DNA from: Escherichia coli
Lineage (GTDB): Bacteria; Pseudomonadota; Gammaproteobacteria; Enterobacterales; Enterobacteriaceae
Length of the DNA: 64,000 nucleotides
Reading direction: 5' to 3' (one strand)
Assembly (NCBI RefSeq): GCF_022846255.1
Contig: NZ_AP025682.1
The notes below the pieces were generated by a model. It did not search any database. It worked only from the letters and a program-made list of their open reading frames with translations, and was not told the DNA's origin. Shown here piece after piece: positions 2,396 through 60,038 of this stretch. Made by a program: the position numbers and the translations under genes. Every line of letters starts with the position of its first letter. The stretch's first letter is position 1.

Positions 2396-2400
2396 TCGTC

Positions 2401-2844: not shown

Positions 2845-2846
2845 GA

Positions 2847-5009: not shown

Positions 5010-5011
5010 CG

Positions 5012-5086: not shown

Positions 5087-5115
5087 AACCAGCTCATAAG
5101 CCGGGAGAACAACCT

Positions 5116-5955: not shown

Positions 5956-5957
5956 AG

Positions 5958-8855: not shown

Positions 8856-8890
8856 TTCGAGTTGCAGGAAGTGGGTGAGCGAGGAAAACC

Positions 8891-8922
<32 letters not shown>

Positions 8923-8935
8923 TACGAGGTAAAAC

Positions 8936-23878: not shown

Positions 23879-24052
23879 ATTTGCGACCATTCCTGGAAAA
23901 ATGGAGCCATACTTAGGAACAATGCTACTGCAATCCACAACGAAGCGGCGTAACATCACAAGTAATTCAGTAATCAATTCAGGGTAATTGATGCTGGCGA
24001 AAAAAATCGAACAAGCTATAATTCAGCAACCATTTTACAGGTGGATGAAATA

Positions 24053-24946
24053 ATGACGAATTTAAAAGCAGTTATTCCTGTAGCGGGTCTTGGGATGCAT
24101 ATGTTGCCTGCCACTAAGGCGATTCCCAAAGAGATGCTACCGATCGTCGACAAGCCAATGATTCAGTACATCGTTGACGAGATTGTGGCTGCAGGGATCA
24201 AAGAAATCCTCCTGGTAACTCACGCTTCCAAGAACGCGGTCGAAAACCACTTCGACACCTCTTATGAATTAGAATCTCTCCTTGAACAGCGCGTGAAGCG
24301 TCAACTGCTGGCGGAAGTACAGTCCATTTGCCCGCCGGGCGTGACAATTATGAACGTGCGTCAGGGCGAACCTTTAGGTTTGGGCCACTCCATTTTATGT
24401 GCACGACCTGCCATTGGTGACAATCCATTTGTCGTGGTGCTGCCAGACGTTGTGATCGACGACGCCAGCGCCGACCCGCTGCGCTACAACCTTGCTGCCA
24501 TGATTGCGCGCTTCAACGAAACGGGCCGCAGCCAGGTGCTGGCAAAACGTATGCCGGGTGACCTCTCTGAATACTCTGTCATCCAGACCAAAGAGCCGCT
24601 GGACCGCGAAGGTAAAGTCAGCCGCATTGTTGAATTCATCGAAAAACCGGATCAGCCGCAGACGCTGGACTCAGACATCATGGCCGTTGGTCGCTATGTG
24701 CTTTCTGCCGATATTTGGCCGGAACTTGAACGCACTCAGCCTGGTGCATGGGGGCGTATTCAGCTGACTGATGCCATTGCCGAACTGGCGAAAAAACAGT
24801 CCGTTGATGCCATGCTGATGACCGGCGACAGCTACGACTGCGGTAAAAAAATGGGTTATATGCAAGCGTTCGTGAAGTATGGACTACGCAACCTCAAAGA
24901 AGGGGCGAAGTTCCGTAAAGGGATTGAGAAGCTGTTAAGCGAATAA
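24053..24946 (+). CDS. galF: UTP-glucose-1-phosphate uridylyltransferase-like regulatory subunit
   Basis: 297 aa from the ATG at 24053 ([32 protein letters not shown]...); the track ORF starts at an upstream GTG. Confidence 0.93.
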
Positions 24947-25203
24947 TGAAAATCTGACCGGATGTAACGGTTGATAAGAAAATTATAACGGCAGTGAAGA
25001 TTAGCGGCGAAAGTAATTTGTTGCGAATTTTCCTGCCGTTGTTTTATATAAACAATCAGAATAACAACGACTTAGCAATAGGATTTTAGTCAAAGTTTTC
25101 CAGGATTTTCCTTGTTTCCAGAGCGGATTGGTAAGACAATTAGCGCTTGAATTTTTCGAGTTAAGCGCGAGTGGGTAACGCTCGTCACATCGTAGGAATG
25201 CAT

Positions 25204-25243
25204 GCAGTGCTCTGGTAGCTGTAAAGCCAGGGGCGGTAGCGTG
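25204..25243 (+). promoter_or_regulatory. JUMPstart element with ops site (GGCGGTAGCGTG at 25232..25243) in the O-antigen operon leader
   Basis: 39-bp block cagtgctctggtagctgtaaagccaggggcggtagcgtg, about 75 bp upstream of rfbB; near-identical to the cps-leader copy. Confidence 0.85.
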
Positions 25244-25318
25244 CATTAATACCTCTATTAATCAAACTGAGAGCCGCTTATTTCACAGCATGCTCTGAAG
25301 TAATATGGAATAAATTAA

Positions 25319-26404
25319 GTGAAGATACTTGTTACTGGGGGCGCAGGATTTATTGGTTCTGCTGTAGTTCGTCACATTATAAATAATACGCAGGATAGTG
25401 TTGTTAATGTCGATAAATTAACGTACGCCGGAAACCTGGAATCACTTGCTGATGTTTCTGACTCTGAACGCTATGTTTTTGAACATGCGGATATTTGCGA
25501 TGCTGCTGCAATGGCGCGGATTTTTGCTCAGCATCAGCCGGATGCAGTGATGCACCTGGCTGCTGAAAGCCATGTGGATCGTTCAATTACAGGCCCTGCG
25601 GCATTTATTGAAACCAATATTGTTGGTACTTATGTCCTTTTGGAAGCGGCTCGCAATTACTGGTCTGCTCTTGATGGCGACAAGAAAAATAGCTTCCGTT
25701 TTCATCATATTTCTACTGACGAAGTCTATGGTGATTTGCCTCATCCTGACGAAGTAAATAATAAAGAACAATTACCCCTCTTTACTGAGACGACAGCTTA
25801 CGCGCCTAGTAGTCCTTATTCCGCATCAAAAGCATCCAGCGATCATTTAGTCCGCGCGTGGAAACGTACCTATGGTTTACCGACTATTGTGACTAACTGT
25901 TCGAATAACTACGGTCCTTATCACTTTCCGGAAAAATTGATTCCACTAGTAATTCTTAATGCTCTGGAAGGTAAGGCATTACCTATTTATGGCAAAGGGG
26001 ATCAAATTCGTGACTGGCTGTATGTTGAAGATCATGCGCGTGCGTTATATACCGTAGTTACTGAAGGTCAAGCGGGTGAAACCTATAACATTGGCGGACA
26101 CAACGAAAAGAAAAACATCGATGTTGTGCTGACTATTTGTGATTTGTTGGACGAGATAGTCCCGAAAGAGAAATCTTATCGTGAGCAAATTACTTATGTT
26201 GCTGATCGCCCAGGGCATGATCGCCGTTATGCGATTGATGCTGAGAAGATTGGTCGCGAATTGGGATGGAAACCACAGGAAACGTTTGAGAGTGGGATTC
26301 GTAAAACGGTGGAATGGTATTTGGCTAATGCAAAATGGGTTGATAATGTGAAAAGTGGTGCCTATCAATCGTGGATTGAACAGAACTATGAGGGCCGCCA
26401 GTAA
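25319..26404 (+). CDS. rfbB: dTDP-glucose 4,6-dehydratase
   Basis: 361 aa; GTG start; [20 protein letters not shown]ossmann motif. Confidence 0.95.
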
Positions 26405-27303
26405 TGAATATCCTCCTTTTTGGCAAAACAGGGCAGGTAGGTTGGGAACTACAGCGTGCTCTGGCACCTCTGGGTAATTTGATTGCTCTTGATGTTCACT
26501 CCACTGATTACTGTGGTGATTTTAGTAACCCTGAAGGTGTGGCTGAAACAGTCAAAAGAATTCGACCTGATGTTATTGTTAATGCTGCGGCTCACACCGC
26601 AGTAGATAAGGCTGAGTCAGAACCCGAATTTGCACAATTACTCAATGCGACTAGCGTTGAATCAATTGCAAAAGCGGCAAATGAAGTTGGGGCTTGGGTA
26701 ATTCATTACTCAACTGACTACGTATTCCCTGGAAATGGCGACACGCCATGGCTGGAGATGGATGCAACCGCACCGCTAAATGTTTACGGTGAAACCAAGT
26801 TAGCTGGAGAAAAAGCATTACAAGAGCATTGTGCGAAGCACCTAATTTTCCGTACCAGCTGGGTCTATGCAGGTAAAGGAAATAATTTCGCCAAAACGAT
26901 GTTGCGTCTGGCAAAAGAGCGTGAAGAACTAGCCGTTATTAATGATCAGTTTGGTGCGCCAACAGGTGCTGAACTGCTGGCTGATTGTACGGCACATGCC
27001 ATTCGTGTCGCACTGAATAAACCGGATGTCGCAGGCTTGTACCATTTGGTAGCCAGTGGTACCACAACCTGGTACGATTATGCTGCGCTGGTTTTTGAAG
27101 AGGCGCGCAATGCAGGCATTCCTCTTGCACTCAACAAGCTCAACGCAGTACCAACAACTGCCTATCCTACACCAGCTCGTCGTCCACATAACTCTCGCCT
27201 TAATACAGAAAAATTTCAGCAGAATTTTGCGCTTGTATTGCCTGACTGGCAGGTTGGTGTGAAACGCATGCTCAACGAATTATTTACGACTACAGCAATT
27301 TAA
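26404..27303 (+). CDS. rfbD: dTDP-4-dehydrorhamnose reductase
   Basis: 299 aa; overlaps the rfbB stop (ATGA-type junction). Confidence 0.95.
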   Translation: MNILLFGKTGQVGWELQRALAPLGNLIALDVHSTDYCGDFSNPEGVAETVKRIRPDVIVNAAAHTAVDKAESEPEFAQLLNATSVESIAKAANEVGAWVIHYSTDYVFPGNGDTPWLEMDATAPLNVYGETKLAGEKALQEHCAKHLIFRTSWVYAGKGNNFAKTMLRLAKEREELAVINDQFGAPTGAELLADCTAHAIRVALNKPDVAGLYHLVASGTTTWYDYAALVFEEARNAGIPLALNKLNAVPTTAYPTPARRPHNSRLNTEKFQQNFALVLPDWQVGVKRMLNELFTTTAI

Positions 27304-27360
27304 TAGTTTTTGCATCTTGTTCGTGATGGTGGAGCAAGATGAATTAAAAGGAATGATGAA

Positions 27361-28239
27361 ATGAAAACGCGTAAAGGTATTATTTTAGCGGGTGGTTCTG
27401 GTACTCGTCTTTATCCTGTGACTATGGTCGTCAGTAAACAGCTATTACCTATATATGATAAACCGATGATCTATTATCCGCTTTCTACACTGATGTTAGC
27501 GGGTATTCGCGATATTCTGATTATTAGTACGCCACAGGATACTCCTCGTTTTCAACAACTGCTGGGTGACGGTAGCCAGTGGGGCCTGAATCTTCAGTAC
27601 AAAGTGCAACCGAGTCCGGATGGTCTTGCGCAGGCATTTATTATCGGTGAAGAGTTTATTGGTGGTGATGATTGTGCTTTGGTACTTGGTGATAATATCT
27701 TCTACGGTCACGACCTGCCTAAGTTAATGGATGCCGCTGTTAACAAAGAAAGTGGTGCAACGGTATTTGCCTATCACGTTAATGATCCTGAACGCTATGG
27801 TGTCGTTGAGTTTGATAAAAACGGTACGGCGATCAGCCTGGAAGAAAAACCGCTACAACCAAAAAGTAATTATGCGGTAACCGGGCTTTATTTTTATGAT
27901 AACGACGTTGTCGAAATGGCGAAAAATCTTAAGCCTTCTGCCCGCGGTGAACTGGAAATTACCGATATTAACCGTATCTATATGGAACAAGGGCGTTTAT
28001 CTGTTGCCATGATGGGGCGTGGTTATGCGTGGTTAGACACGGGGACACATCAGAGCCTGATTGAGGCAAGCAACTTTATTGCAACAATTGAAGAGCGTCA
28101 GGGGCTGAAAGTTTCCTGCCCGGAAGAAATTGCTTACCGTAAAGGGTTTGTTGATGCTGAGCAGGTGAAAGTATTAGCTGAACCTCTGAAAAAAAATGCT
28201 TATGGTCAGTATCTGCTGAAAATGATTAAAGGTTATTAA
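27361..28239 (+). CDS. rfbA: Glucose-1-phosphate thymidylyltransferase
   Basis: 292 aa; [16 protein letters not shown] motif. Confidence 0.95.
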
Positions 28240-28243
28240 TAAA

Positions 28244-28792
28244 ATGAACGTAATTAAAACAGAAATTCCTGATGTACTGATTTTTGAACCGAAAGTTTTT
28301 GGTGATGAGCGTGGTTTCTTTTTTGAGAGCTTTAACCAGAAGGTTTTTGAGGAAGCTGTAGGCCGCAAAGTTGAATTTGTTCAGGATAACCATTCGAAGT
28401 CTAGTAAAGGTGTTTTACGCGGGCTGCATTATCAGTTGGAACCTTATGCACAAGGAAAATTGGTGCGTTGCGTTGTCGGTGAAGTTTTTGACGTAGCTGT
28501 TGATATTCGTAAATCGTCATCGACTTTTGGCAAATGGGTTGGGGTGAATTTATCTGCTGAGAATAAGCGGCAATTGTGGATTCCTGAGGGATTTGCACAT
28601 GGTTTTTTAGTGCTGAGTGAGACGGCGGAGTTTTTGTATAAGACGACAAATTATTATCATCCTCAGAGTGATAGAGGAATAAAATGGGATGATCCAAGTA
28701 TCAATATTTCATGGCCAGTCGATTCACAAGTGCTGCTATCAGCTAAAGATAATAAGCATCCTCCATTAACAAAGATTGAAATGTATAGTTAA
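28244..28792 (+). CDS. rfbC: dTDP-4-dehydrorhamnose 3,5-epimerase
   Basis: 182 aa; cupin-fold RmlC (FGDERGFFFESF..., RGLHYQ). Confidence 0.93.
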   Translation: MNVIKTEIPDVLIFEPKVFGDERGFFFESFNQKVFEEAVGRKVEFVQDNHSKSSKGVLRGLHYQLEPYAQGKLVRCVVGEVFDVAVDIRKSSSTFGKWVGVNLSAENKRQLWIPEGFAHGFLVLSETAEFLYKTTNYYHPQSDRGIKWDDPSINISWPVDSQVLLSAKDNKHPPLTKIEMYS

Positions 28793-28823
28793 GATCACGA
28801 TAAATCTTGGAAGGGTTGCAAAA

Positions 28824-30062
28824 TTGAATAAAATAGTGAGCAAAAGTGAAATAAGGAACGTAATCCACAATGCTGGCTATATGATGATTACTCAGATAGC
28901 TTTATATGTTGCACCATTATTTATACTGAGTTATCTGTTAAAAACACTGGGGGTTGCACAGTTTGGTAATTATGCCTTAATACTATCAATCGTTGCATAT
29001 TTACAGATTATAACGGATTATGGTTTTTCTTTTAGTGCAAGTCGTGCGATCTCACAGAATAGAGAGGACAAAGAATATATATCAAAAATTTATCTGTCAA
29101 CTATGACTATCAAGTTGGCGATATGCGCTTTCTTATTCTTATTGCTCATGCTATTTTTAAATCTTTTGCCTGTGCAAGCTGAATTAAAACAAGGAATATT
29201 ATATGGATATCTTCTTGTAATAGGAAATACTTTCCAACCACAATGGTTTTTCCAAGGTATCGAAAAATTAAAAATCATAGCCCTTTCTAATGTTATATCA
29301 AGATGCGCCGCGTGTTTACTTGTATTTATCTATGTGAGGAATAGCGAGGATTTACAAAAAGCACTTTTAGTACAGTCACTTCCATTAGTAATTTCTGCGA
29401 TTGGATTAAATATATTTATATTGAAATATATCAATATTATTTTTCCGGAAAAAAAATTATTTAAGGTAATTTTAAAAGAAGGTAAGGATTTTTTTCTTGC
29501 ATCACTTTATTCTGTTATTCTCAATAATAGTGGCATTTTTCTATTAGGGATTTTTACTAATCCTGTTATTGTTGGTGTATATGCCGCCGCTGAAAAGATA
29601 GTCAAGGCCGTATTGTCGCTATTTACACCACTGACGCAAGCTATATATCCTTATAATTGTCGTAAGTTTTCACTATCCGTATTTGACGGCATTGAGGCAG
29701 CAAAAAAAACTGGTATACCAATTATAATTTTAGCATTTATAGCTGCTGTTATCGTTGCAATTACCTTACCTGTTGCAATCGACTATCTTAATTTTCCAAA
29801 AGAAACAATTTTTGTAGGTCAAATATTAAGTGCATGGATCTTTTTTGGTGTTCTTAATAATGTATTCGGCATTCAGATATTGAGTGCATCAGGAAGAAGT
29901 AAAATATATAGTAGGATGGTATTCGTATCAGCGCTTATAACATTACTTTTGATTACTCTATTATTGCAGTTTTGTAACGCCACTGGAGTGGCATGTGCAA
30001 TATTATTGGGTGAAATGTTCTTATCAATATTGTTACTTAAGCGATATAAAAAAATAATTTAA
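28824..30062 (+). CDS. wzx: O-antigen flippase (Wzx)
   Basis: Polytopic membrane protein in an AT-rich gene; start uncertain: TTG at 28824 (MNKIVSKSEIRNV...) preferred over the track ORF start at 28776, which overlaps rfbC. Confidence 0.8.
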   Translation: MNKIVSKSEIRNVIHNAGYMMITQIALYVAPLFILSYLLKTLGVAQFGNYALILSIVAYLQIITDYGFSFSASRAISQNREDKEYISKIYLSTMTIKLAICAFLFLLLMLFLNLLPVQAELKQGILYGYLLVIGNTFQPQWFFQGIEKLKIIALSNVISRCAACLLVFIYVRNSEDLQKALLVQSLPLVISAIGLNIFILKYINIIFPEKKLFKVILKEGKDFFLASLYSVILNNSGIFLLGIFTNPVIVGVYAAAEKIVKAVLSLFTPLTQAIYPYNCRKFSLSVFDGIEAAKKTGIPIIILAFIAAVIVAITLPVAIDYLNFPKETIFVGQILSAWIFFGVLNNVFGIQILSASGRSKIYSRMVFVSALITLLLITLLLQFCNATGVACAILLGEMFLSILLLKRYKKII

Positions 30063-30071
30063 GGAATAGTT

Positions 30072-31199
30072 ATGAAGAAGTTATTATTAGTGTTCGGTAC
30101 TAGGCCTGAAGCAATAAAGATGGCCTCTATCATTGAATTATTAAAAAAAGATTGTAGATTCGAATATAAAATATGTGTGACAGGCCAACATAAAGAGATG
30201 CTTGATCAAGTTATGCAAGTATTTGATGTTAAACCTGATTATAATTTACGGATTATGCAGCCTGGGCAAACATTAGTATCTGTAGCAACAAATATACTCT
30301 CACGGTTAAGTGAAGTTTTAATTATAGAAAAGCCAGATATTATACTTGTGCATGGGGATACAACGACTACCCTTGCTGCTACTTTAGCTGGGTATTACCA
30401 CCAAATAAAAGTTTGTCATGTGGAAGCAGGATTAAGAACAGGGGATATTTACTCTCCTTGGCCTGAAGAGGGCAATCGTAAAGTTACAGGGGCATTAGCA
30501 TGTATTCATTTCGCCCCAACAGAGAGATCAAAAGATAATCTCCTGAGGGAGGGGGTCAAAGTAAATAATATATTTGTAACGGGTAATACCGTCATCGACT
30601 CTTTATTTATTGCAAAAGATATCATAGATAATGACCCTAATATAAAGAACGCTTTACATAATAAATTTAATTTTCTTGATAAAAGCCGACGAGTAGTACT
30701 TATAACAGGTCATCGAAGAGAAAATTTCGGGAAAGGTTTTGAAGATATATGCTTTGCAATAAAGGAATTAGCTTTCATTTATCCTAATGTAGATTTTATT
30801 TATCCGGTGCATCTTAATCCCAATGTAATGGAACCAGTACATCGTATATTAGATAATATATGTAATATTTACCTTATTGAGCCCTTGGATTATTTGCCTT
30901 TTGTTTATTTAATGAATGAGTCATATTTAATATTGACTGATTCAGGGGGGATACAAGAAGAAGCGCCTTCGTTAGGTAAACCGGTTTTGGTTATGCGTGA
31001 TACTACTGAACGCCCTGAGGCGGTTGAGGCTGGTACTGTTGTATTAGTGGGGACTTCTAAGATAAAAATAGTAAATAAAGTAACGGAGCTATTAAACAAT
31101 GCTGATATCTACAATGCTATGTCTCTGTTACATAATCCATATGGCGATGGAACAGCTGCTCAAAAAATTCTTAATGTGCTCGCCCAAGAGCTAATTTAA
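30072..31199 (+). CDS. UDP-N-acetylglucosamine 2-epimerase (non-hydrolysing, WecB/MnaA-like)
   Basis: 375 aa; N-terminal LLVFGTRPEAIKMA and HGDTTTTLAATLAGYY, HVEAGLRTGD motifs. Confidence 0.85.
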   Translation: MKKLLLVFGTRPEAIKMASIIELLKKDCRFEYKICVTGQHKEMLDQVMQVFDVKPDYNLRIMQPGQTLVSVATNILSRLSEVLIIEKPDIILVHGDTTTTLAATLAGYYHQIKVCHVEAGLRTGDIYSPWPEEGNRKVTGALACIHFAPTERSKDNLLREGVKVNNIFVTGNTVIDSLFIAKDIIDNDPNIKNALHNKFNFLDKSRRVVLITGHRRENFGKGFEDICFAIKELAFIYPNVDFIYPVHLNPNVMEPVHRILDNICNIYLIEPLDYLPFVYLMNESYLILTDSGGIQEEAPSLGKPVLVMRDTTERPEAVEAGTVVLVGTSKIKIVNKVTELLNNADIYNAMSLLHNPYGDGTAAQKILNVLAQELI

Positions 31200-31213
31200 T
31201 TTAAGCTAAAAAT

Positions 31214-32278
31214 ATGTTATTAATTATTGCTGATTATCCAAACGAAATGAATATGCGCGAGGGAGCTATGCAACGAATAGATGCGATAGACTCTCTCATT
31301 CGAGATCGCAAGCGAGTGTATTTGAATATTTCATTCAAAAAGCATCTAGTTCGCTCAAATAGTTCCTTTAATAATGTTATAGTTGAAAATCTAAATGCAA
31401 TTATTCACAGAAACATCATAAAACAGTACATGCAAAAATCAACAACTATATATGTTCATTCTGTTTATAATTTATTAAAGGTTATAACGCTCATTGATCT
31501 AAAAAAAACAATTCTTGATATACATGGTGTTGTACCGGAAGAACTTTTGGCAGATAATAAAAAATTACTTAGTAAAGTATATAACATGGTGGAAAAAAAA
31601 GGTGTCCTTGGATGCAAAAAATTAATACACGTCAGTACAGAAATGCAAAAACACTATGAAGCAAAATATGGAGTAAACTTGGCTGAAAGGTCAATAGTGC
31701 TCCCGATTTTTGAATATAAAAATATAACCCAATCGCAAAACAAATGGACAGAAAATAAAATACGAAGTATCTATCTTGGAGGATTACAAACATGGCAAAA
31801 TATTGATAAAATGATTCAAATTTGTGATGACACAGTGATAAACAATGAAGCAGGTAAGTATGAATTCAACTTTTTCATCCCACAGAGTAACTTGGAAGGG
31901 TTTATAGATAAATATTCGTTAAAATTACATAATATCAATGCTAATGCATCTACGCTATCACGTGATGAAGTAATTCCCTTTCTAAAAGAATGTCATATTG
32001 GTTTTGTATTGCGCGATGATATAATAGTAAACAGAGTTGCGTGCCCTACAAAATTGGTTGAATATTTAGAGTGTGGTGTCGTTCCAGTTGTGCTCTCCCC
32101 ACTTATAGGTGATTTTTATTCGATGGGATATCAATACATTACTACAGAGGAAATGGCTAACAGAAGTATAAGTTTGTTGGATCTTGAAAAAATGGCTGCA
32201 CATAATTTACAAATTTTGACTTCTTATCAGAAGAGAACCTACAAGGCACAGAAAGAACTTATTGCTCAACTGTGCTGA
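31214..32278 (+). CDS. Putative O-antigen glycosyltransferase (GT-B/GT4-like)
   Basis: 354 aa; AT-rich; C-terminal PTKLVEYLECGVVPVV resembles the GT4 donor-binding region; position in the O-antigen cluster. Confidence 0.6.
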   Translation: MLLIIADYPNEMNMREGAMQRIDAIDSLIRDRKRVYLNISFKKHLVRSNSSFNNVIVENLNAIIHRNIIKQYMQKSTTIYVHSVYNLLKVITLIDLKKTILDIHGVVPEELLADNKKLLSKVYNMVEKKGVLGCKKLIHVSTEMQKHYEAKYGVNLAERSIVLPIFEYKNITQSQNKWTENKIRSIYLGGLQTWQNIDKMIQICDDTVINNEAGKYEFNFFIPQSNLEGFIDKYSLKLHNINANASTLSRDEVIPFLKECHIGFVLRDDIIVNRVACPTKLVEYLECGVVPVVLSPLIGDFYSMGYQYITTEEMANRSISLLDLEKMAAHNLQILTSYQKRTYKAQKELIAQLC

Positions 32279-32329
32279 ATTTTTTACATATATAAAATTA
32301 TGTAAGCATATCGCTGGTCAGGTAATTGT

Positions 32330-33334
32330 ATGCGTATCAAATATAAAGATAACGGTTATATATTATGTTTTCTATTATGTTTCATTTTGAGCTACTTAGT
32401 TTTACTCAAATCTGACTACTTTCCTGCTGATTTTCTGCCATATACAGAAATATACGATGGGACATACGGAGAAATCAATAATATTGAGCCTGCCTTTTTA
32501 TATTTAACACGGTTGTTTCATTATTTAAATTTCCCCTATATATTTTTTGCAATGTTAGTTTGTGCCTTATGTTTAAGTTGGAAAATAAAATATGCAAGAA
32601 AAATAATTAAAGATAGTTATATATATTTATTCTTGTATGTATATGTATCATTTTATGTGTTTTTGCATGAAATGACTCAATTGCGCATAGCAATTGCAGT
32701 CACTATGTGCTATGTGTCGGTTTATTATTACTTTTATAAAAATTGTATTAAACATGCACTGCCATGGATGGTGTTGGCTATTTTGTTTCATTACAGCGCC
32801 TTGCTTTTATTTATGTCATTATTTATATACAGTTATAGGAGGTTATTAATAGTAATTATAGGGTTTGTAATATGTATGAGCTTTTTAAACGTGTATGCAG
32901 ATACAATTGCACTATATTTGCCAAATGAAAAAATAGTAAATTATTTATATAGTATTTCATCATCATTAGACAATAGAAATGATTTGGCAATATTCAACCT
33001 GAATAATATAATATTTTTATCAATATTTATTTTGATCTTTTATCTTAGCCGATATATAAAATTAAATGATAATGAGGCGAAGTTTATTAAGTATGTGCAA
33101 TGTTCAGGAATATTAGCCTTTTGTATTTTCTTTCTGGCTAGTGGAGTCCCGGTCATTGCTTATCGAACTGCAGAGTTGCTGCGAATATTTTATCCGATGG
33201 CTTTAGTATTAATCCTTTCGCATATAAAAAATAATAATATGCGTTATTTTATTGCAGTCATTATAGTTATCCTTTCAGGCTTAATGTTGTTTATAACACT
33301 AAGGGCTGTATCAATAGTTGGTCAAGGATTATAA
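32330..33334 (+). CDS. wzy: Putative O-antigen polymerase (Wzy)
   Basis: 334 aa, very hydrophobic with about 10 predicted transmembrane helices; very AT-rich; typical position in the cluster. Confidence 0.7.
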   Translation: MRIKYKDNGYILCFLLCFILSYLVLLKSDYFPADFLPYTEIYDGTYGEINNIEPAFLYLTRLFHYLNFPYIFFAMLVCALCLSWKIKYARKIIKDSYIYLFLYVYVSFYVFLHEMTQLRIAIAVTMCYVSVYYYFYKNCIKHALPWMVLAILFHYSALLLFMSLFIYSYRRLLIVIIGFVICMSFLNVYADTIALYLPNEKIVNYLYSISSSLDNRNDLAIFNLNNIIFLSIFILIFYLSRYIKLNDNEAKFIKYVQCSGILAFCIFFLASGVPVIAYRTAELLRIFYPMALVLILSHIKNNNMRYFIAVIIVILSGLMLFITLRAVSIVGQGL

Positions 33335-34295
33335 AATGAATGTTGCTATTTTGTTGTCTACGTATAATGGCGAAAAATATTTAGAGGAACAACTGGATTC
33401 ATTGCTGCTTCAAAGTTATCAGGATTTTGTAGTGTATATCCGTGATGACGGATCATCTGATAGAACTGTAAATATAATAAACCAATACGTAATGAAAGAT
33501 AACAGATTTATTAACGTGGGTAATTCAGAAAATCTTGGTTGTGCTGCTTCGTTTATTAATTTATTAAGAAATGCTTCAGCCGATATTTATATGTTTTGTG
33601 ACCAAGATGATTATTGGCTTCCGAATAAATTACAGCGTGCTGTGGATTATTTTTCGGCTATTGATCCTTTACAACCTACCTTGTATCATTGCGATCTAAG
33701 CGTTGTTGATGAAAAACTTAATATTATACAAAATTCATTTTTGCAGCATCAGAAAATGTCAGCGTATGATTCAATGAGAAAAAATAATCTTTTCATACAA
33801 AATTTTGTTGTTGGTTGTTCATGTGCTGTTAATGCTTCACTTGCGGAATTTGTTCTTTCGCGAATTGGAGAGCAGCATGTAAAAATGATAGCTATGCATG
33901 ACTGGTGGTTAGCCGTGACTGCAAAACTTTTTGGTCGAATCCATTTTGATAATACTCAAACGATTCTTTATCGACAACATCAGGGCAATGTATTAGGTGC
34001 AAAATCATCAGGTATGATGCGTTTTATTCGATTAGGATTAAATGGGCAAGGGATTTCGCGAGTAGTATCTTTTAGAAAAAAAGTTTGTGCGCAAAATAAG
34101 CTTCTTTTAGATGTCTATGATAAAGAGTTAAATCTTGAGCAAAAAAAATCTATCAGGCTTGTAATTGAGGGCCTTAAAGAGAACTCTTCAATTGCTGACC
34201 TTTTAAAATGTTTCTATCATGGTAGCTATATGCAAGGTTTTAAACGTAATCTTGCCTTAATATATTCAGTTCTTTACACAAAAAAAAGAAGATAG
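33318..34295 (+). CDS. Glycosyltransferase family 2
   Basis: NVAILLSTYNGEKYLEEQLDSLLLQSY...IRDDGSSDRT GT2 signature; start could be the ATG at 33336. Confidence 0.8.
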   Translation: MVKDYKMNVAILLSTYNGEKYLEEQLDSLLLQSYQDFVVYIRDDGSSDRTVNIINQYVMKDNRFINVGNSENLGCAASFINLLRNASADIYMFCDQDDYWLPNKLQRAVDYFSAIDPLQPTLYHCDLSVVDEKLNIIQNSFLQHQKMSAYDSMRKNNLFIQNFVVGCSCAVNASLAEFVLSRIGEQHVKMIAMHDWWLAVTAKLFGRIHFDNTQTILYRQHQGNVLGAKSSGMMRFIRLGLNGQGISRVVSFRKKVCAQNKLLLDVYDKELNLEQKKSIRLVIEGLKENSSIADLLKCFYHGSYMQGFKRNLALIYSVLYTKKRR

Positions 34296-34304
34296 TGTAT
34301 CCTT

Positions 34305-35369
34305 ATGAAAAAAATTGCTATTATCGGTACTGTTGGCATACCAGCATCATATGGCGGATTTGAAACATTAGTTGAAAATTTAACAAGATACAATTCCTCG
34401 GGAGTTGAATATAATGTTTTTTGTTCATCGTTTCACTACAAATCCCACCAAAAAAAACATAATGGGGCCCGTTTAATTTATATTCCGCTTAAAGCCAATG
34501 GATGGCAGAGCATTGCGTATGACATAATTTCGTTAGCATATTCTATTTTTTTGAAGCCTGATGTGATTCTGATTTTAGGGGTTTCTGGTTGTTCATTTTT
34601 GCCTTTCTTCAAACTCTTAACACGCGCTAAGTTTATTACTAATATTGATGGCTTGGAATGGCGAAGAGATAAATGGAATTCAAAAGTGAAACGTTTCTTA
34701 AAATTTTCAGAAAAAATCGCAGTTCAATATTCGGATGTCGTTATTACGGATAATGAGGCAATTTCTGAGTACGTTTTTAACGAGTATAATAAAGATAGCC
34801 GAGTTATTGCCTATGGAGGGGATCATGCATGGTTAAATACTGAGGATGTATTTACAACAAGAAATTATAAAAGCGATTACTACCTTTCTGTATGTCGTAT
34901 CGAACCCGAAAACAATGTAGAATTAATTTTAAAAACATTTTCAAAGCTAAAATATAAAATAAAATTTATTGGAAATTGGAATGGCAGCGAGTTTGGAAAG
35001 AAACTTAGGCTGCATTATTCTAACTATCCAAATATTGAAATGATTGATCCGATTTATGATCTTCAACAATTATTTCACTTACGAAATAATTGCATAGGAT
35101 ATATACATGGTCATTCGGCTGGAGGAACAAACCCTTCTTTAGTCGAGGCAATGCATTTTAGTAAACCTATATTTGCATATGATTGTAAGTTTAATAGGTA
35201 CACTACTGAAAATGAAGCATGTTATTTTTCTAATGAATCTGACCTCGCAGAGAAAATCATAATGCATTGTGAGCTATCATTAGGTGTCTCTGGCACGAAA
35301 ATGAAAGAAATTGCTAACCAGAAATACACTTGGAGACGAATAGCAGAAATGTATGAGGATTGCTATTAA
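34305..35369 (+). CDS. Glycosyltransferase (GT1/GT4 with DUF1972-like N-terminus)
   Basis: 354 aa; N-terminal KIAIIGTVGIPASYGGFETLVENL; last gene before gnd. Confidence 0.75.
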   Translation: MKKIAIIGTVGIPASYGGFETLVENLTRYNSSGVEYNVFCSSFHYKSHQKKHNGARLIYIPLKANGWQSIAYDIISLAYSIFLKPDVILILGVSGCSFLPFFKLLTRAKFITNIDGLEWRRDKWNSKVKRFLKFSEKIAVQYSDVVITDNEAISEYVFNEYNKDSRVIAYGGDHAWLNTEDVFTTRNYKSDYYLSVCRIEPENNVELILKTFSKLKYKIKFIGNWNGSEFGKKLRLHYSNYPNIEMIDPIYDLQQLFHLRNNCIGYIHGHSAGGTNPSLVEAMHFSKPIFAYDCKFNRYTTENEACYFSNESDLAEKIIMHCELSLGVSGTKMKEIANQKYTWRRIAEMYEDCY

Positions 35370-35473
35370 CTCTGTTAAACTTCAAATCTTTTACAATATA
35401 TGGCATGACTATAAGCGCATTAATTGTTTTTCAAGCCGCTCTCGCGGTGACCACCCCCTGACAGGAGTAAACA

Positions 35474-36880
35474 ATGTCAAAGCAACAGATCGGCGTCGTC
35501 GGTATGGCAGTGATGGGGCGCAACCTTGCGCTCAACATCGAAAGCCGTGGTTATACCGTCTCTATTTTCAACCGTTCCCGTGAAAAGACGGAAGAAGTGA
35601 TTGCCGAAAATCCAGGCAAGAAACTGGTTCCTTACTATACGGTGAAAGAGTTTGTTGAATCTCTGGAAACGCCTCGTCGCATCCTGTTAATGGTGAAAGC
35701 AGGTGCAGGCACGGATGCTGCTATTGATTCCCTCAAACCATATCTCGATAAAGGTGACATCATCATTGATGGTGGCAATACCTTCTTCCAGGACACCATT
35801 CGTCGTAACCGTGAACTTTCTGCCGAAGGCTTTAACTTCATTGGTACCGGTGTCTCCGGTGGTGAAGAAGGCGCGCTGAAAGGTCCTTCTATTATGCCTG
35901 GTGGGCAGAAAGAAGCCTATGAACTGGTTGCACCAATCCTGACCAAAATCGCCGCAGTAGCTGAAGACGGGGAGCCATGCGTTACCTATATTGGTGCCGA
36001 TGGCGCAGGCCATTATGTGAAGATGGTTCACAACGGTATTGAATACGGCGATATGCAGCTGATTGCTGAAGCCTATTCTCTGCTTAAAGGTGGCTTGAAC
36101 CTTTCCAACGAAGAACTGGCGCAGACCTTTACCGAGTGGAATAACGGTGAACTGAGCAGCTACCTGATTGACATCACTAAAGACATCTTCACTAAAAAAG
36201 ATGAAGACGGTAACTACCTGGTTGATGTGATTCTGGATGAAGCGGCTAACAAAGGTACCGGTAAATGGACCAGCCAGAGCGCGCTGGATCTCGGTGAACC
36301 GCTGTCGCTGATTACCGAGTCTGTGTTTGCACGTTATATCTCTTCTCTGAAAGATCAGCGTGTTGCCGCATCTAAAGTTCTCTCTGGCCCGCAAGCGCAG
36401 CCAGCAGGCGATAAAGATGAGTTCATCGAAAAAGTTCGCCGTGCACTGTATCTGGGCAAAATCGTTTCTTACGCTCAGGGCTTCTCTCAACTGCGTGCGG
36501 CGTCTGAAGAGTACAACTGGGATCTGGACTACGGCGAAATCGCGAAGATTTTCCGTGCTGGCTGCATCATCCGTGCGCAGTTCCTGCAGAAAATCACCGA
36601 TGCTTATGCCGAAAATCCGCAGATCGCTAACCTGCTGCTGGCTCCGTACTTCAAGCAAATCGCCGATGACTACCAGCAGGCGCTGCGCGATGTCGTCGCT
36701 TACGCGGTACAGAACGGTATCCCGGTTCCGACCTTCGCCGCTGCGGTTGCCTATTATGACAGCTACCGCGCCGCTGTTCTGCCTGCGAACCTGATCCAGG
36801 CACAGCGTGACTATTTCGGTGCGCATACTTATAAGCGCATTGATAAAGAAGGTGTGTTCCATACCGAATGGCTGGATTAA
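35474..36880 (+). CDS. gnd: 6-phosphogluconate dehydrogenase (decarboxylating)
   Basis: 468 aa; [21 protein letters not shown]ossmann N-terminus; conserved position between the O-antigen cluster and ugd. Confidence 0.97.
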
Positions 36881-36906
36881 TCTGATTTAATCAACAATAA
36901 AATTGA

Positions 36907-46745: not shown

Positions 46746-46783
46746 AAAAGTCTCTGTGAATGTTTATTCAACTGATGTCTTTT

Positions 46784-46813
46784 AACCTAAACCACTTTCA
46801 CGTTAGAAAGCAA
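46784..46813 (-). promoter_or_regulatory. Putative his promoter (-35 TTGCTT, -10 TAGGTT on the minus strand)
   Basis: Hexamers with about 18-bp spacing, roughly 40-70 bp upstream of hisL; AT-rich UP-like tract further upstream. Confidence 0.6.
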
Positions 46814-46967
46814 GGGCTTTTTTATATATTTTATGGCAATGGATTTGTTTAATGAATGAGCGGGGAAAGGAGGGGGCCTGGAGTGACTACGTTAGAAAAG
46901 AAATCGTGAAAATATGTCTTTAAAACCCTCAAGAACATTGTGTTCTGTAACTAAAGTGGGCTTTGTT

Positions 46968-47072
46968 CCTGCCGGATGCGGCGTGAATGCCTTATCTGGT
47001 CTACAAATGTTGCGTAAATTCAATATATTGATGTTTTTGTAGGACTGATAAGCGGAGCGCATCAGGCAATGG
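46968..47072. repeat. Two REP elements in the hisL-yeeZ spacer
   Basis: gccggatgcggcgtgaatgccttatctgg and gtaggactgataagcggagcgcatcaggc palindromic REP-type motifs. Confidence 0.65.
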
Positions 47073-47171
47073 TATATTTGCTAACCGTTTCGATTTCATT
47101 CATAGAATGAATTGTCAGTTTTGATACGCTAGCGTAGCCTTATAGATCTTAGGTGTATCAGGAGATAACGG

Positions 47172-53544: not shown

Positions 53545-53752
53545 TAGGTTAAATCCGTTATTTCTGCTGTCTGCCAGAGTATCAAATATCACCGTGCTAA
53601 TCAGCTTTAGCGCGACAATTTGGCAGCGAGTGGCAACAGATCATGTCAGATAAAAATGAGATAGTAGTCACATTTTCTTGCACTTTATTCCAGCCAGTTC
53701 ATAAGTATTTCCGTAAAAAGAACAGCTATTTGAAACACCTGAGGGTTTGCTG

Positions 53753-54919
53753 TTGAAACGCCGTCTTATTATTGCTGCTTCTTTGTTCGTTTTTAATTTA
53801 TCGTCTGGTTTTGCGGCGGAAAACATTCCTTTTTCACCTCAGCCTCCAGAGATTCATGCCGGGTCCTGGGTATTGATGGATTACACCACCGGTCAGATTC
53901 TCACCGCGGGTAATGAGCATCAACAGCGCAATCCCGCCAGCCTGACAAAGCTGATGACGGGCTATGTCGTGGATCGTGCTATCGATAGTCATCGCATTAC
54001 GCCAGACGATATTGTCACCGTGGGGCGTGATGCGTGGGCGAAAGATAATCCGGTGTTTGTCGGTTCTTCACTGATGTTTTTGAAAGAGGGCGATCGCGTA
54101 TCGGTACGTGATTTAAGCCGTGGTTTAATTGTGGATTCCGGAAATGACGCTTGTGTTGCACTGGCTGACTATATTGCCGGTGGGCAACGGCAGTTTGTTG
54201 AAATGATGAACAACTATGCCGAGAAGCTGCATCTCAAGGATACGCATTTTGAAACAGTGCATGGTCTGGATGCACCTGGCCAGCATAGCTCGGCTTATGA
54301 TTTAGCTGTGCTTTCTCGCGCTATCATCCACGGCGAGCCCGAGTTTTATCATATGTACAGTGAGAAAAGCCTCACCTGGAACGGTATCACCCAGCAAAAC
54401 CGTAACGGGTTATTGTGGGATAAAACCATGAATGTTGACGGCCTGAAAACGGGTCATACTTCTGGTGCCGGGTTTAATCTCATTGCTTCGGCTGTAGATG
54501 GGCAGCGTCGTCTCATTGCAGTGGTAATGGGGGCTGACAGCGCAAAAGGTCGTGAGGAAGAGGCAAGAAAATTACTGCGTTGGGGTCAACAAAACTTTAC
54601 TACGGTGCAAATTTTGCACCGTGGGAAAAAGGTTGGTACGGAACGCATCTGGTATGGCGATAAAGAAAATATCGCCCTGGGAACGGAACAAGAGTTCTGG
54701 ATGGTGCTACCGAAAGCCGAAATTCCACATATCAAAGCCAAATATACCCTTGATGGTAAAGAACTCACCGCGCCAATTAGCGCCCATCAGCGGGTAGGGG
54801 AAATTGAACTTTACGACCGTGATAAACAGGTGGCGCACTGGCCGCTGGTTACCCTGGAATCTGTCGGGGAAGGCAGCATGTTTTCCCGGCTGAGTGATTA
54901 TTTCCACCATAAGGCCTGA
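53753..54919 (+). CDS. dacD: D-alanyl-D-alanine carboxypeptidase (PBP6b)
   Basis: 388 aa with a TTG start; SxxK (ASLTK), SGN and KTG motifs; signal peptide. Confidence 0.9.
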   Translation: MKRRLIIAASLFVFNLSSGFAAENIPFSPQPPEIHAGSWVLMDYTTGQILTAGNEHQQRNPASLTKLMTGYVVDRAIDSHRITPDDIVTVGRDAWAKDNPVFVGSSLMFLKEGDRVSVRDLSRGLIVDSGNDACVALADYIAGGQRQFVEMMNNYAEKLHLKDTHFETVHGLDAPGQHSSAYDLAVLSRAIIHGEPEFYHMYSEKSLTWNGITQQNRNGLLWDKTMNVDGLKTGHTSGAGFNLIASAVDGQRRLIAVVMGADSAKGREEEARKLLRWGQQNFTTVQILHRGKKVGTERIWYGDKENIALGTEQEFWMVLPKAEIPHIKAKYTLDGKELTAPISAHQRVGEIELYDRDKQVAHWPLVTLESVGEGSMFSRLSDYFHHKA

Positions 54920-55511: not shown

Positions 55512-55708
55512 TTCATCTCAGGGCGGTGTGTTGACGCGAAGACCACTCTTTTTTTGAAAGCGAAAAGAGTAAGATGCGCCTTTCAAATTTTTCGCTCCTG
55601 CCGGGAAATTACACTGTTCCCGGTATGTCCGTCGGATAACTCAGAGGCGCGCCTTCTGGCCGACAGATGTGTTATGAGCGCTTTTAATCTTCATTACGGA
55701 GTTTCTGC

Positions 55709-56767
55709 GTGCGTGCCGATAAGTCATTAAGCCCGTTTGAAATCCGGGTATACCGCCATTACCGCATTGTGCATGGTACTCGGGTCGCGCTGGCATTCCT
55801 GCTCACTTTTCTCATTATCCGCCTGTTTACTATCCCGGAAAGCACCTGGCCGCTGGTCACCATGGTGGTGATTATGGGGCCAATCTCGTTCTGGGGGAAC
55901 GTTGTCCCTCGTGCCTTCGAACGTATTGGCGGTACGGTGTTGGGTTCGATTTTAGGTCTTATCGCTCTGCAACTGGAGTTAATTTCGTTACCGCTGATGT
56001 TAGTCTGGTGCGCGGCGGCGATGTTTCTTTGCGGTTGGCTGGCGCTGGGCAAGAAACCGTATCAAGGATTATTGATTGGGGTGACGCTGGCAATTGTTGT
56101 GGGTTCCCCGACAGGTGAAATTGATACGGCGTTATGGCGAAGCGGCGATGTGATCCTCGGCTCTTTACTGGCAATGTTGTTTACCGGTATCTGGCCACAA
56201 CGGGCGTTCATCCACTGGCGCATTCAACTGGCGAAAAGTCTGACCGAGTATAATCGGGTCTATCAATCTGCATTCTCACCGAACTTACTCGAACGCCCAC
56301 GTCTGGAAAGCCATCTACAAAAACTGCTGACCGATGCCGTGAAAATGCGTGGGCTGATTGCGCCCGCCAGCAAAGAAACCCGTATTCCAAAATCGATATA
56401 TGAAGGTATCCAGACCATTAACCGCAATCTGGTTTGTATGCTGGAGTTGCAAATCAATGCATACTGGGCCACGCGCCCCAGCCATTTCGTGTTATTGAAC
56501 GCGCAAAAACTTCGTGATACCCAGCACATGATGCAGCAAATACTGCTGAGCCTTGTTCATGCGCTGTACGAAGGTAATCCGCAGCCGGTTTTTGCCAATA
56601 CGGAAAAATTGAACGATGCTGTGGAAGAGCTGCGTCTGTTGCTTAATAACCACCATGACCTGAAGGTTGTGGAAACACCAATCTATGGTTATGTGTGGCT
56701 GAACATGGAAACGGCGCATCAGCTTGAGTTGCTATCGAATCTGATTTGCCGGGCCTTGCGCAAATAA
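55709..56767 (+). CDS. yeeA: FUSC-like inner membrane protein
   Basis: 352 aa with a GTG start; several transmembrane segments. Confidence 0.85.
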   Translation: MRADKSLSPFEIRVYRHYRIVHGTRVALAFLLTFLIIRLFTIPESTWPLVTMVVIMGPISFWGNVVPRAFERIGGTVLGSILGLIALQLELISLPLMLVWCAAAMFLCGWLALGKKPYQGLLIGVTLAIVVGSPTGEIDTALWRSGDVILGSLLAMLFTGIWPQRAFIHWRIQLAKSLTEYNRVYQSAFSPNLLERPRLESHLQKLLTDAVKMRGLIAPASKETRIPKSIYEGIQTINRNLVCMLELQINAYWATRPSHFVLLNAQKLRDTQHMMQQILLSLVHALYEGNPQPVFANTEKLNDAVEELRLLLNNHHDLKVVETPIYGYVWLNMETAHQLELLSNLICRALRK

Positions 56768-57282: not shown

Positions 57283-57310
57283 AATGAGGGTTGCCCGGCA
57301 ACCCTCATTG
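57283..57310 (+). terminator. Hairpin terminator after yeeX
   Basis: caatgagggttgcccggcaaccctcattg perfect inverted repeat. Confidence 0.7.
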
Positions 57311-57368
57311 CTCATTGATTCTTATCTGTGTATCACCGTCATCATTCTCATCTGAGAACCTATCGAAA

Positions 57369-57590
57369 TTAGCGGCAGCCTTCTTCTGTATGCAGCAAGG
57401 CAAAAAGTTCTGTAACTCCATTGTTATTAACCGCACTGGTTACTAACACGTTGTGCGCTCCAGCTTCCCGTAACCAACATTTCACCAAAGATATTTGTTC
57501 CATGCTGGCTAAATCTGCTTTGGTTACTACTCCAATGACCGGGTGATTCATGGCCCGGTAGGGCGTTTTTACCTCTAATTCCTGCTTCAG
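57369..57590 (-). pseudogene. yoeF: C-terminal fragment of a PduV/EutP-family GTPase gene (yoeF-like remnant)
   Basis: Minus-strand translation ...PVIGVVTKADLASMEQISLVKCWLREAGAHNVLVTSAVNNNGVTELFALL carries the G4 motif TKAD but the N-terminal P-loop half is missing; the 5' side is replaced by IS66-type sequence. Confidence 0.6.
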
Positions 57591-57599
57591 CGCTGAGAT

Positions 57600-57781
57600 T
57601 CCTGCTTGTTGCCGGAAAAGCAGGCACCTGCCGTCTGAACGGTATCGATCCGGAAGCGTATCTGCGCCATATTCTGAGCATACTGCCGGAATGGCCCTCC
57701 AACCGTGTTGACGAACTCCTGCCATGGAACGTAGTTCTCACCAATAAATAAGCGTCAATATGGTGCTCCGTTGACGCTTAC
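57600..57781 (+). mobile_element. 3' remnant of an IS66-family insertion sequence (transposase C-terminus plus terminal inverted repeat)
   Basis: Plus-strand frame encodes ...AGKAGTCRLNGIDPEAYLRHILSILPEWPSNRVDELLPWNVVLTNK* (stop at 57749..57751), followed by an element end ...gttgacgcttac (reverse complement GTAAGCG..., IS66-type terminus) at 57770..57781. Confidence 0.7.
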
Positions 57782-57982
57782 TTTAATCCGTTTTCTGAGC
57801 TTAGATTTTTCTGTTCCTACCCAGACCGTGGATTTGGAATTCATTTTTTGTCAGGTCAATGCTAATCGTTAAAACGGCCATAACGCACCTCCACTGGAAG
57901 GTTTATCAGTAATATCCTACCGTTGCTTCATGGTCGGGGCGTCCATTCCATTATTATCGGTTTTCCTTTCTGTTTATAAATG

Positions 57983-58010
57983 AAAACGCCAGCTGTATTC
58001 AGGCTGGCGT
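57983..58010 (-). terminator. Rho-independent terminator downstream of yeeW
   Basis: Minus strand gacgccagcctgaatacagctggcg hairpin followed by TTTTC. Confidence 0.65.
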
Positions 58011-58165
58011 CAGGGGAAATGAAGCCTGTTGAGTGAGATTCACCGGTTCTGGTGCAGAAGCTGCAGATGGCGCAGGGTAAGGACATCTTCTCTTGCCTGC
58101 TTAATACAGGACAACAGTGCTGTTTCTGTGGTTAATGGCACTATACCCTGCATCACTGCATTGTC

Positions 58166-58360
58166 TTACAGCAACTGGTGAGGGCTGGCATAAGTTGCCG
58201 GTGTTTCGGTAGAGTCACGGTCATCCACCACGCGGAGTGAATAACCGTTTTCAGCGGCCTTATTAATCAGTTCAGTGATATTAACACCATCAATGTCAAC
58301 GACAATGTGCCCCATATCCAGCGCCTGTACGTTAACGCTGTCGGCTTCCAGTGTCATCAT
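58166..58360 (-). CDS. yeeW: CP4-44-type small protein YeeW
   Basis: 64 aa (MMTLEADSVNVQALDMGH...); its ATG overlaps the stop of the cbtA reading frame. Confidence 0.75.
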   Translation of the reverse strand: MMTLEADSVNVQALDMGHIVVDIDGVNITELINKAAENGYSLRVVDDRDSTETPATYASPHQLL

Positions 58361-58730
58361 TTCGCCTCCGGATACTTACCCAGGGTAATGTTATTTACCG
58401 TTCTGTAATTGTCGCGGGTCATCAGGCCGGTCGCCCTGCGAGCCCGGAGGATATCGATGCTGTTTATTAACTGAGAGCGGGTACAGGCGCTGAATCCCGG
58501 CTGGTCGGTAGCACCAGCGCGTATTTTTCCACGAGAAAGTTCACCGCATCACACAGTGAAATGCCTGCCTCAATATGCTGCTCAATCACACGTTCATCGG
58601 CAAAAGGTGTGTCATTCTGTGTGAGGCCATAGTGCTGGTCCAGCAGTCGGGACAGCAGTATCTGCCAGATTTCAACAGGAGACGGGCGAGAACTGGCCGC
58701 CTGCCCGGGTAATACAGGTAATGTTTTCAT
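58357..58730 (-). pseudogene. cbtA: CbtA (YeeV) toxin gene, frameshifted
   Basis: The first 71 codons ([35 protein letters not shown]...LVEKYALV) are followed by a frame change near 58510..58512; the -1 frame continues [51 protein letters not shown] and ends on the TGA overlapping the yeeW ATG, while the current frame stops at 58467. Confidence 0.75.
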
Positions 58731-58818
58731 ACTGAAGATTTTCCTGATATGCAGATATAAAAATGGAAAAGTGGCGTGGTGAAAACACCAGGCCGTAGCA
58801 GAAGGCTATTCTGGAGAG

Positions 58819-59187
58819 TTAATTTTTCATTTCGGGCGTCGGATAAACAGCCAGATAAACGTAACCACAACTGCTGAGGGTATCGGCTTTGCAGGTCAGC
58901 CCTTTTGCATACAGCGTGACGGTATGCTGATGGCGGGGATTCAGTTCACCGCTGGTGAGCATGAGCTCCAGTTGTTTCATCAGCAGCGGAAAGGCCTGGT
59001 CCAGGTGGTACGCATCTGCATCGCTGAACAGGCCTCTGATACCGGCGCGGTCGGCAAGGTAATGCAACCGGTTACCCTCCTGCACCAGACGTGCCCCGAA
59101 ACAGGGCGTCACGGTGCAGGGCAGCCCCCACCAGGGGCGGTCGTGATTGTCGTCGGGAAGTGTTGTCCCGGGGAGTGTGTCTGACAC
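58819..59187 (-). CDS. cbeA: CbeA (YeeU) antitoxin
   Basis: 122 aa (MSDTLPGTTLPDDNHDRPWWGLPCTVTPCFGARLVQEG...). Confidence 0.85.
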   Translation of the reverse strand: MSDTLPGTTLPDDNHDRPWWGLPCTVTPCFGARLVQEGNRLHYLADRAGIRGLFSDADAYHLDQAFPLLMKQLELMLTSGELNPRHQHTVTLYAKGLTCKADTLSSCGYVYLAVYPTPEMKN

Positions 59188-59262
59188 GATAAAATCCTCA
59201 CAGAAAATCGGTTAAGAATGGTCCGGTAGTGGCGATAATTCTGCTCATCAGAATGCCCTGAC

Positions 59263-59484
59263 TCAGTTCAGGGTGACACTCATCAGGCGGACATACGGGC
59301 CAAAACTGTCCTTACGGCGTTCAGCAAACACGGCAAGAACGCCGGGAATATCCTGCACTTCACGACCGGTATACGCTTCAGCGCTGCCGTGCCAGCGGTA
59401 CTTACCGGTACAGAACGGAAAAAGACGGGATGCAGGATGCTGTTGGTGAATACGCATGGCTTCACCACGGGTGATAATTTTCAT
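59263..59484 (-). CDS. yeeT: DUF987-family protein YeeT
   Basis: 73 aa (MKIITRGEAMRIHQQHP...). Confidence 0.8.
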   Translation of the reverse strand: MKIITRGEAMRIHQQHPASRLFPFCTGKYRWHGSAEAYTGREVQDIPGVLAVFAERRKDSFGPYVRLMSVTLN

Positions 59485-59546
59485 GATGGGATACCTCTGA
59501 AGACAGAAGATAAAAGTGAAAACAAGTGTGATGTAGTTGTGACGGG

Positions 59547-60038
59547 TTAAAGCAGACCGTGTTCCGCAAAGGAGAAAACCTGGTTGCCACCGACTATCAG
59601 ATGGTCCGGCACCCGGATATCCACCAGGGCCAGTGCCTGTACCAGACGTTCGGTGATAAGCCGGTCTGCCTTACTGGGTGTGACTTCACCGGACGGGTGA
59701 TTGTGTGCCAGCACCACGGCAGCGGCATTGTGATACAGGGCGCGTTTAATCACTTCCCGGGGATGGACTTCCGTGCGGTTGATGGTGCCGGTGAAGAGGG
59801 TTTCACCGGCAATCAGCTGATTCTGGTTGTTCAGATACAGCACCCGGAATTCTTCACGCTCCAGTCCCGCCATGTTCAGAATCAGCCATTCCCGTGCCGC
59901 ACGGGTGGAGGTGAAGGGCACGCCGGGTTCATGAAGATGGCGGTCCAGGGTTTTCAGGGCCCGCAGAATGAGGCTGCGCTCGCCGGGCGTCATCTCTCCT
60001 GGCAGAAAGGAAAGTTGTTGCATTGTGCTTCTCTCCAT
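59547..60038 (-). CDS. yeeS: RadC-like JAB-domain protein (UPF0758)
   Basis: JAMM motif HNHPSGEVTPSKAD; the start may be the internal ATG (MQQLSFL...). Confidence 0.85.
   Translation of the reverse strand: MERSTMQQLSFLPGEMTPGERSLILRALKTLDRHLHEPGVPFTSTRAAREWLILNMAGLEREEFRVLYLNNQNQLIAGETLFTGTINRTEVHPREVIKRALYHNAAAVVLAHNHPSGEVTPSKADRLITERLVQALALVDIRVPDHLIVGGNQVFSFAEHGLL

Follow-up and report, generated by a model that had tools for sequence, protein, structure and literature searches.

Escherichia coli initiates 83% of its genes at AUG, 14% at GUG and 3% at UUG, and reporter assays place initiation from GUG and UUG at 10–100% of that from AUG (Hecht et al., 10.1101/063800). Selection generally favours AUG, and sub-optimal start codons tend to be compensated by stronger Shine-Dalgarno (SD) sequences; the net output of genes with a non-ATG start therefore need not be low (Belinky et al., PMC5622118). 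In K-12 MG1655 (NC_000913.3), dacD (b2010), yeeA (b2008), rfbB (b2041) and cbeA (b2004) are the same genes, in the same order, as in the DNA analysed here, a 64,000-nt stretch of an E. coli chromosome referred to below as the window. Their start codons are also the same, and the surrounding sequence is the same or nearly so. The K-12 dacD context reads ...GAGGGTTTGCTG TTG AAA..., the start being the second TTG of TTG CTG TTG; yeeA reads ...GGAGTTTCTGC GTG..., rfbB reads ...AATAAATTAA GTG..., and cbeA begins with GTG.

The window contains the colanic acid cluster, the O1 O-antigen cluster, the his operon and the genes sbcB-dacD-sbmC-yeeA, the last stretch being 100% identical to many E. coli chromosomes. 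The O1 cluster is made up of galF, rfbBDAC, wzx, wecB, a glycosyltransferase gene, wzy, two more glycosyltransferase-type genes (one of them annotated as DUF1972 only) and gnd. Positions 24000–36900 match the O-antigen cluster of O1 strains at 100% identity, and the DNA identity to the O1A-type cluster is 100% over the whole of rfbBDAC-wzx-wecB-GT-wzy-GT-GT-gnd. K-12 differs in carrying an O16 cluster, whose flippase gene rfbX starts with ATG. K-12 also has the yefM-yoeB toxin-antitoxin pair between hisL and yeeZ, whereas the window lacks it (46746–47171) and has a hisL-yeeZ gap of about 430 bp.

Annotated starts were placed on the window by alignment to a related RefSeq genome, with every start mapped. 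The coordinates of one RefSeq genome were not used directly, since the window is not identical to it (99.4% over 8930–64000 and 97.8% over the first 8.8 kb). The gene order in this closely related genome is colanic acid cluster, O1 cluster, ugd, wzzB and his operon, followed by yeeZ, yeeY, plaP, tsuAB, sbcB, dacD, sbmC, yeeA, tmaR and a CP4-44-like island. The less similar part of the window (1–8930, wza to wcaD) has an 84-bp coordinate offset relative to the genome that matches the rest, and its lower identity is consistent with mosaic recombination in the neighbourhood of the capsule and O-antigen loci.

The GTG and TTG starts in the window are real, ordinary and already present in the reference annotation. 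Those of dacD, yeeA, rfbB, cbeA and wzx can with high confidence be regarded as near-cognate initiation codons of the usual bacterial kind, on E. coli genes that are well known. A first-pass annotation of the sequence had assigned such starts to dacD, yeeA, rfbB and wzx, pointing to TTG 53747, TTG 53753, GTG 55709, GTG 25319 and TTG 28824. Every one of these codons is found at its place, and all four genes have conserved N-termini that are incompatible with any downstream ATG. That gene list was correct as far as it went and missed a fifth member, cbeA, on the minus strand (GTG, first base 59187). The features concerned are as follows.

25319–25321, plus strand: rfbB initiation codon GTG, with an in-frame TAA (25316–25318) immediately upstream
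28824–28826, plus strand: wzx candidate start TTG, the choice of the first-pass annotation and of the 412-aa call P0001, favoured by SD geometry
28836–28838, plus strand: wzx candidate start GTG, the RefSeq choice (CDS 28836–30062, 408 aa), at the homology-backed position
53741–53745, plus strand: dacD SD, GAGGG, at -12 to -8 from the start; anti-SD duplex -6.1 kcal/mol
53747–53749, plus strand: in-frame TTG upstream of the dacD start, not a conserved start by comparison of 80 loci and by SD spacing
53753–53755, plus strand: dacD initiation codon TTG, the second of two (RefSeq, K-12, conservation and SD spacing)
53753–54919, plus strand: dacD CDS, PBP6b, a DD-carboxypeptidase (NCBIfam equivalog NF008489 and RefSeq annotation)
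55698–55701, plus strand: yeeA SD, GGAG; -6.1 kcal/mol, 6 nt from the end of the pairing to the GTG
55709–55711, plus strand: yeeA initiation codon GTG; no earlier codon following the in-frame TAA at 55685 is start-capable
59185–59187, minus strand: cbeA initiation codon GTG (RefSeq annotation mapped; the same in K-12)

Non-ATG starts are not unusually frequent here. By the mapped RefSeq annotation, 60 of the 65 complete CDSs in the window begin with ATG, four with GTG (rfbB, wzx, yeeA and cbeA) and one with TTG (dacD). The non-ATG share is thus 5/65 (7.7%) versus about 17% genome-wide in E. coli, which would give about 11. Enrichment was rejected (P(X≥5)=0.99); this value and its counterpart (P(X≤5)=0.026) come from a single comparison with a literature rate, among operon genes that are not independent, and are to be read as 'not enriched' only. 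Apart from careful annotation, the presence of these starts has little consequence.

Initiator tRNA recognises GUG and UUG through a first-position mismatch, under proofreading by IF3. At the genes considered here, initiator fMet-tRNA would read the GUG or UUG in the P site on a 30S subunit placed by an SD 6–8 nt upstream, and the protein would begin with fMet whichever start codon is present. The starts used in this scheme would be TTG 53753 for dacD, GTG 55709 for yeeA, GTG 25319 (with a weak SD) for rfbB, GTG 59187 on the minus strand for cbeA, and either 28836 or 28824 for wzx. From general knowledge, initiation at these codons is expected to be less efficient than at ATG. The first-pass annotation had said as much, and its statement holds in general, given the reporter range of 10–100% of AUG; for these particular genes it is an assumption carried over from reporter studies. 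Both dacD and yeeA have good SDs (-6.1 kcal/mol each). No direct experimental mapping of initiation at these genes was found in the literature searched, and dacD, yeeA, rfbB and cbeA are all absent from the TRAINSPOTTER N-terminomics supplements.

The one start whose exact position is in question is that of wzx. Its in-frame candidates are TTG 28776, TTG 28824, GTG 28836, ATG 28881 and ATG 28884. The two ATGs are excluded, since a start at 28881 or 28884 would delete SKSEIRNVIHNAGY, residues conserved in homologues; TTG 28776 lacks an SD and falls in an overlap with the rfbC end. RefSeq uses GTG 28836 in every record checked (O1 family O-antigen flippase Wzx, WP_157658977.1). TTG 28824 lies in frame four codons upstream, the window reading TTG AAT AAA ATA GTG with the frame open throughout. 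The start is non-ATG either way, and the two codons are given roughly equal weight.

Initiation at TTG 28824 would yield a 412-aa protein (MNKIVSKSEIRN...), with the ribosome placed by the SD-like GGAAGGG at 28809–28815 and the O1 allele having gained a four-codon N-terminal extension relative to its homologues. This has close to an even chance of being correct. It is the only wzx candidate with a usable SD (-6.0 kcal/mol, 8 nt before the TTG), none being found within range for GTG 28836; where close homologues have a weak GGAA ahead of the GTG, the window reads TGAA. A separate gene caller also arrived at the 412-aa product P0001, which has 262 member sequences in a large protein collection. 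Against this stand the consistency of RefSeq and the DNA of homologues from nine lineages, in which the wzx start lies at most one codon from the 28836 position. The start codon is GTG in five lineages (L085/86, L087/88, L089, L090 and L100), TTG in one (Salmonella, L091/92) and ATG in two (L099 and L101), L098 being ambiguous. The three closest lineages read TTG GAA TGA AAA GTG, so that in them the equivalent of TTG 28824 runs directly into a stop codon and cannot serve as a start. TTG is in addition generally a weaker start than GTG, and A/U-rich leaders can support SD-less initiation. Variation within the species cannot discriminate between the two codons, the 91 E. coli genomes that carry this wzx 5' region being at least 99% identical there. 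The choice of TTG 28824 in the first-pass annotation is therefore backed by its SD and opposed by homology and by the RefSeq use of GTG 28836, and dual initiation is possible. The choice adds or removes four residues in front of the first hydrophobic, presumed transmembrane, segment, an uncertainty that matters only for N-terminal fusions or expression constructs of the flippase. The protein matches PF01943 (Polysacc_synt) and PF13440, as precomputed on the 100%-identical P0001; the NCBIfam HMM scan gave no match for Wzx at 1e-20.

Translation of dacD from TTG 53753 gives a 388-aa precursor, MKRRLIIAAS..., and the protein matches NF008489 over its full length (profile positions 1–389) at 848.6 bits versus a cutoff of 610. 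TTG 53747 and TTG 53753 share one reading frame, that of the dacD ORF of 388 or 390 codons. To compare them, 80 orthologous loci of Enterobacteriaceae were aligned, one per species, from Escherichia, Salmonella, Citrobacter, Enterobacter, Klebsiella, Kluyvera, Kosakonia and other genera, with 79–99% protein identity. TTG stands at the 53753 position in 80/80 loci, with AAA as the next codon in all 80. Bases -12 to -8 are GAGGA in 78 loci, GAGGG in one and AAGGA in one, the window itself having GAGGG. As an internal control, the 22 other columns of invariant Leu in the alignment use four to six codons apiece, and only 1 of the 185 degenerate invariant-residue columns is fixed to a single codon, probably codon 2 (AAA). 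Because TTG is fixed in every locus while other invariant leucines vary among four to six codons, 53753 behaves as a start codon; it is constrained as a triplet, the pattern of an initiation codon and not of a Leu codon.

Initiation at the first TTG, either alone (a 390-aa precursor, MLLKRR...) or together with the second, is very unlikely. The codon at 53747 is start-capable and in frame and is the one picked by a longest-ORF rule, its equivalent is ATG in 36/80 species, and the 389 positions of the NCBIfam DacD profile imply extra N-terminal residues in some seed sequences. The equivalent position is, however, start-capable in only 43/80 loci: beside the 36 ATG codons it reads ATA in 20, TTG in 7, TTA in 6, ATT in 5, ACA in 2, and ACG, GTT, TTT and CTG in one each, which leaves 37/80 orthologues without a start codon there. 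Geometry argues in the same direction. The anti-SD pairing ends 7 nt before 53753 and 1 nt before 53747, a spacing of 1 nt being too close for P-site placement. The dacD start in both RefSeq and K-12 is likewise 53753. Since the upstream codon is TTG in only 7/80 loci, the tandem TTGs are a lineage-specific coincidence. The first-pass annotation was accordingly right that dacD begins with TTG, while the two TTGs it listed are not equivalent, only 53753 being conserved and properly spaced from the SD. N-terminal proteomics, which it had proposed as a check, cannot separate the two candidates, because they differ only within the signal peptide, whose expected cleavage should leave an identical mature protein; PBP6b has been purified without its signal peptide (Peters et al., PMC4916385). 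The literature search found no paper that joins dacD with a TTG start codon, and no toeprint, translation-initiation-site profiling or nascent N-terminus for the dacD start.

In the 36 species with ATG two codons upstream of the conserved dacD TTG (L012–L022 and others), that ATG lies about 2 nt past the SD. It is probably not the real dacD start, and gene callers would be likely to pick it, giving a 390-aa DacD in those genomes. The annotation of dacD should run from the second TTG. These species, together with the different calls made for wzx by two gene callers, bear out the earlier remark that such starts are easy to misannotate.

DacD synthesis at neutral pH is 6–29 molecules per generation, and the protein is induced 30- to 100-fold at pH 5, largely via transcription (PMC4916385). 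The invariant weak TTG fits the very low PBP6b synthesis reported, and its invariance across the Enterobacteriaceae suggests that a weak start is tolerated or maintained in a gene expressed at a very low level. The codon is invariant in 80 species although the rest of the gene is saturated at its synonymous sites; a one-base change to ATG or GTG was never seen in the 80 loci, whereas the start of the neighbouring yeeA did switch. Beyond mere tolerance, selection might actively keep the TTG as a translational throttle on a DD-carboxypeptidase needed only at acidic pH, a tentative reading that is rather doubtful at present. Under it, initiation would possibly be sensitive to IF3 or to growth conditions, and a change of TTG to ATG in dacD would be deleterious. 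The genes infC and pcnB, whose non-AUG starts are regulatory, resemble dacD in combining a sub-optimal start with a product that is low or controlled. The likeness is an analogy only: any feedback or IF3 dependence of dacD would be conjectural, and the start of infC and pcnB is the non-canonical AUU (as reviewed by Hecht et al., 10.1101/063800), unlike that of dacD with its canonical near-cognate UUG. As a sub-optimal start conserved across a whole family, the weak TTG is a minor example, but one open to testing.

Farther upstream of dacD, a CCGTAAAAAG-like motif at 53705–53716, about 40 nt from the start, is visibly conserved in most of the 80 loci, and the sequence between it and the SD is variable across loci. 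The motif could be a promoter or a regulator site of the acid-induced dacD promoter. A simple sigma-70 scan gave no match at the motif, and a promoter and terminator scan of the region upstream of dacD returned nothing on the plus strand.

The GTG starts of yeeA and rfbB are secure. For yeeA, 76 of the dacD loci reach far enough downstream to cover the start. The equivalent codon is GTG in 74 of them, ATG in one (Salmonella enterica subsp. arizonae) and TTG in one (Superficieibacter), the very set of substitutions that a start codon permits. Nearly all 76 loci carry GGAG, spaced 6–8 nt from the start codon; the encoded N-terminus RADKSLSPFEIR is conserved across the 76, and in 15/76 an in-frame stop immediately precedes the start. 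In the window, the nearest in-frame stop is seven codons upstream, with no start-capable codon in between. The FUSC-family name of YeeA comes from the RefSeq annotation only, the NCBIfam scan having given no match at 1e-20. Most non-Escherichia genera (L011–L084) keep a TACAAT hexamer, a near-consensus -10 box, about 30–35 nt before the start of yeeA; the window has a TTATGAG-like sequence at this position.

The rfbB GTG is the only start-capable codon between the in-frame stop and the conserved N-terminal domain, in which the nucleotide-binding GxxGxxG motif begins at residue 7. K-12 has GTG at this position, as do four other divergent E. coli alleles, one of them with unrelated upstream sequence. 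The product matches NF007490 (dTDP-glucose 4,6-dehydratase RfbB) at 795.4 bits versus a cutoff of 649, with residues 1–361 aligned to profile positions 1–361. The rfbB SD is weak (-3.3 kcal/mol).

A general displacement of these starts to downstream ATGs, with the GTG and TTG calls being annotation artefacts, can be dismissed as extremely improbable: the only support found for it is that gene callers generally tend to over-extend ORFs, and the next in-frame Met of dacD comes at about residue 44 of the 390-aa translation, past the signal peptide region, yeeA has no Met in roughly its first 50 residues and a conserved N-terminus in 76 loci, the rfbB GxxGxxG motif is reached already at residue 7, and ATG 28881 of wzx would drop the conserved SKSEIRNVIHNAGY. 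The ortholog alignment named in the first-pass annotation as a way to reveal downstream ATG starts gave them no support.

Several further elements lie near rfbB. A two-codon ORF, ATG GAA TAA (25305–25313), is separated from the rfbB GTG by 5 nt and overlaps the weak SD-like GGA; its ATGGAATAA string is kept in 4/5 other E. coli rfbB alleles examined, and the adjacent bases vary. About 75 nt upstream of rfbB is a JUMPStart-like sequence (25205–25243) with an ops element, GGCGGTAGCGTG, whose core GGCGGTAG occupies 25232–25239. A second JUMPStart-like copy, with its ops core at 1066–1073, lies about 180 nt upstream of wza. RfaH antitermination sites are expected in the O-antigen and colanic acid operons, and the two copies are these sites. 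Three further GGCGGTAG matches (479, 8052 and 13827) are without flanking JUMPStart sequence.

The GTG of cbeA is preceded by an SD, GAGGA, with a pairing energy of -6.0 kcal/mol and a spacing of 6 nt. Positions 57300–64000 of the window carry what remains of a CP4-44-like island, several of its genes being degraded; in the island of the related genome, cbtA is annotated as frameshifted, alongside a partial transposase and DUF957 fragments.
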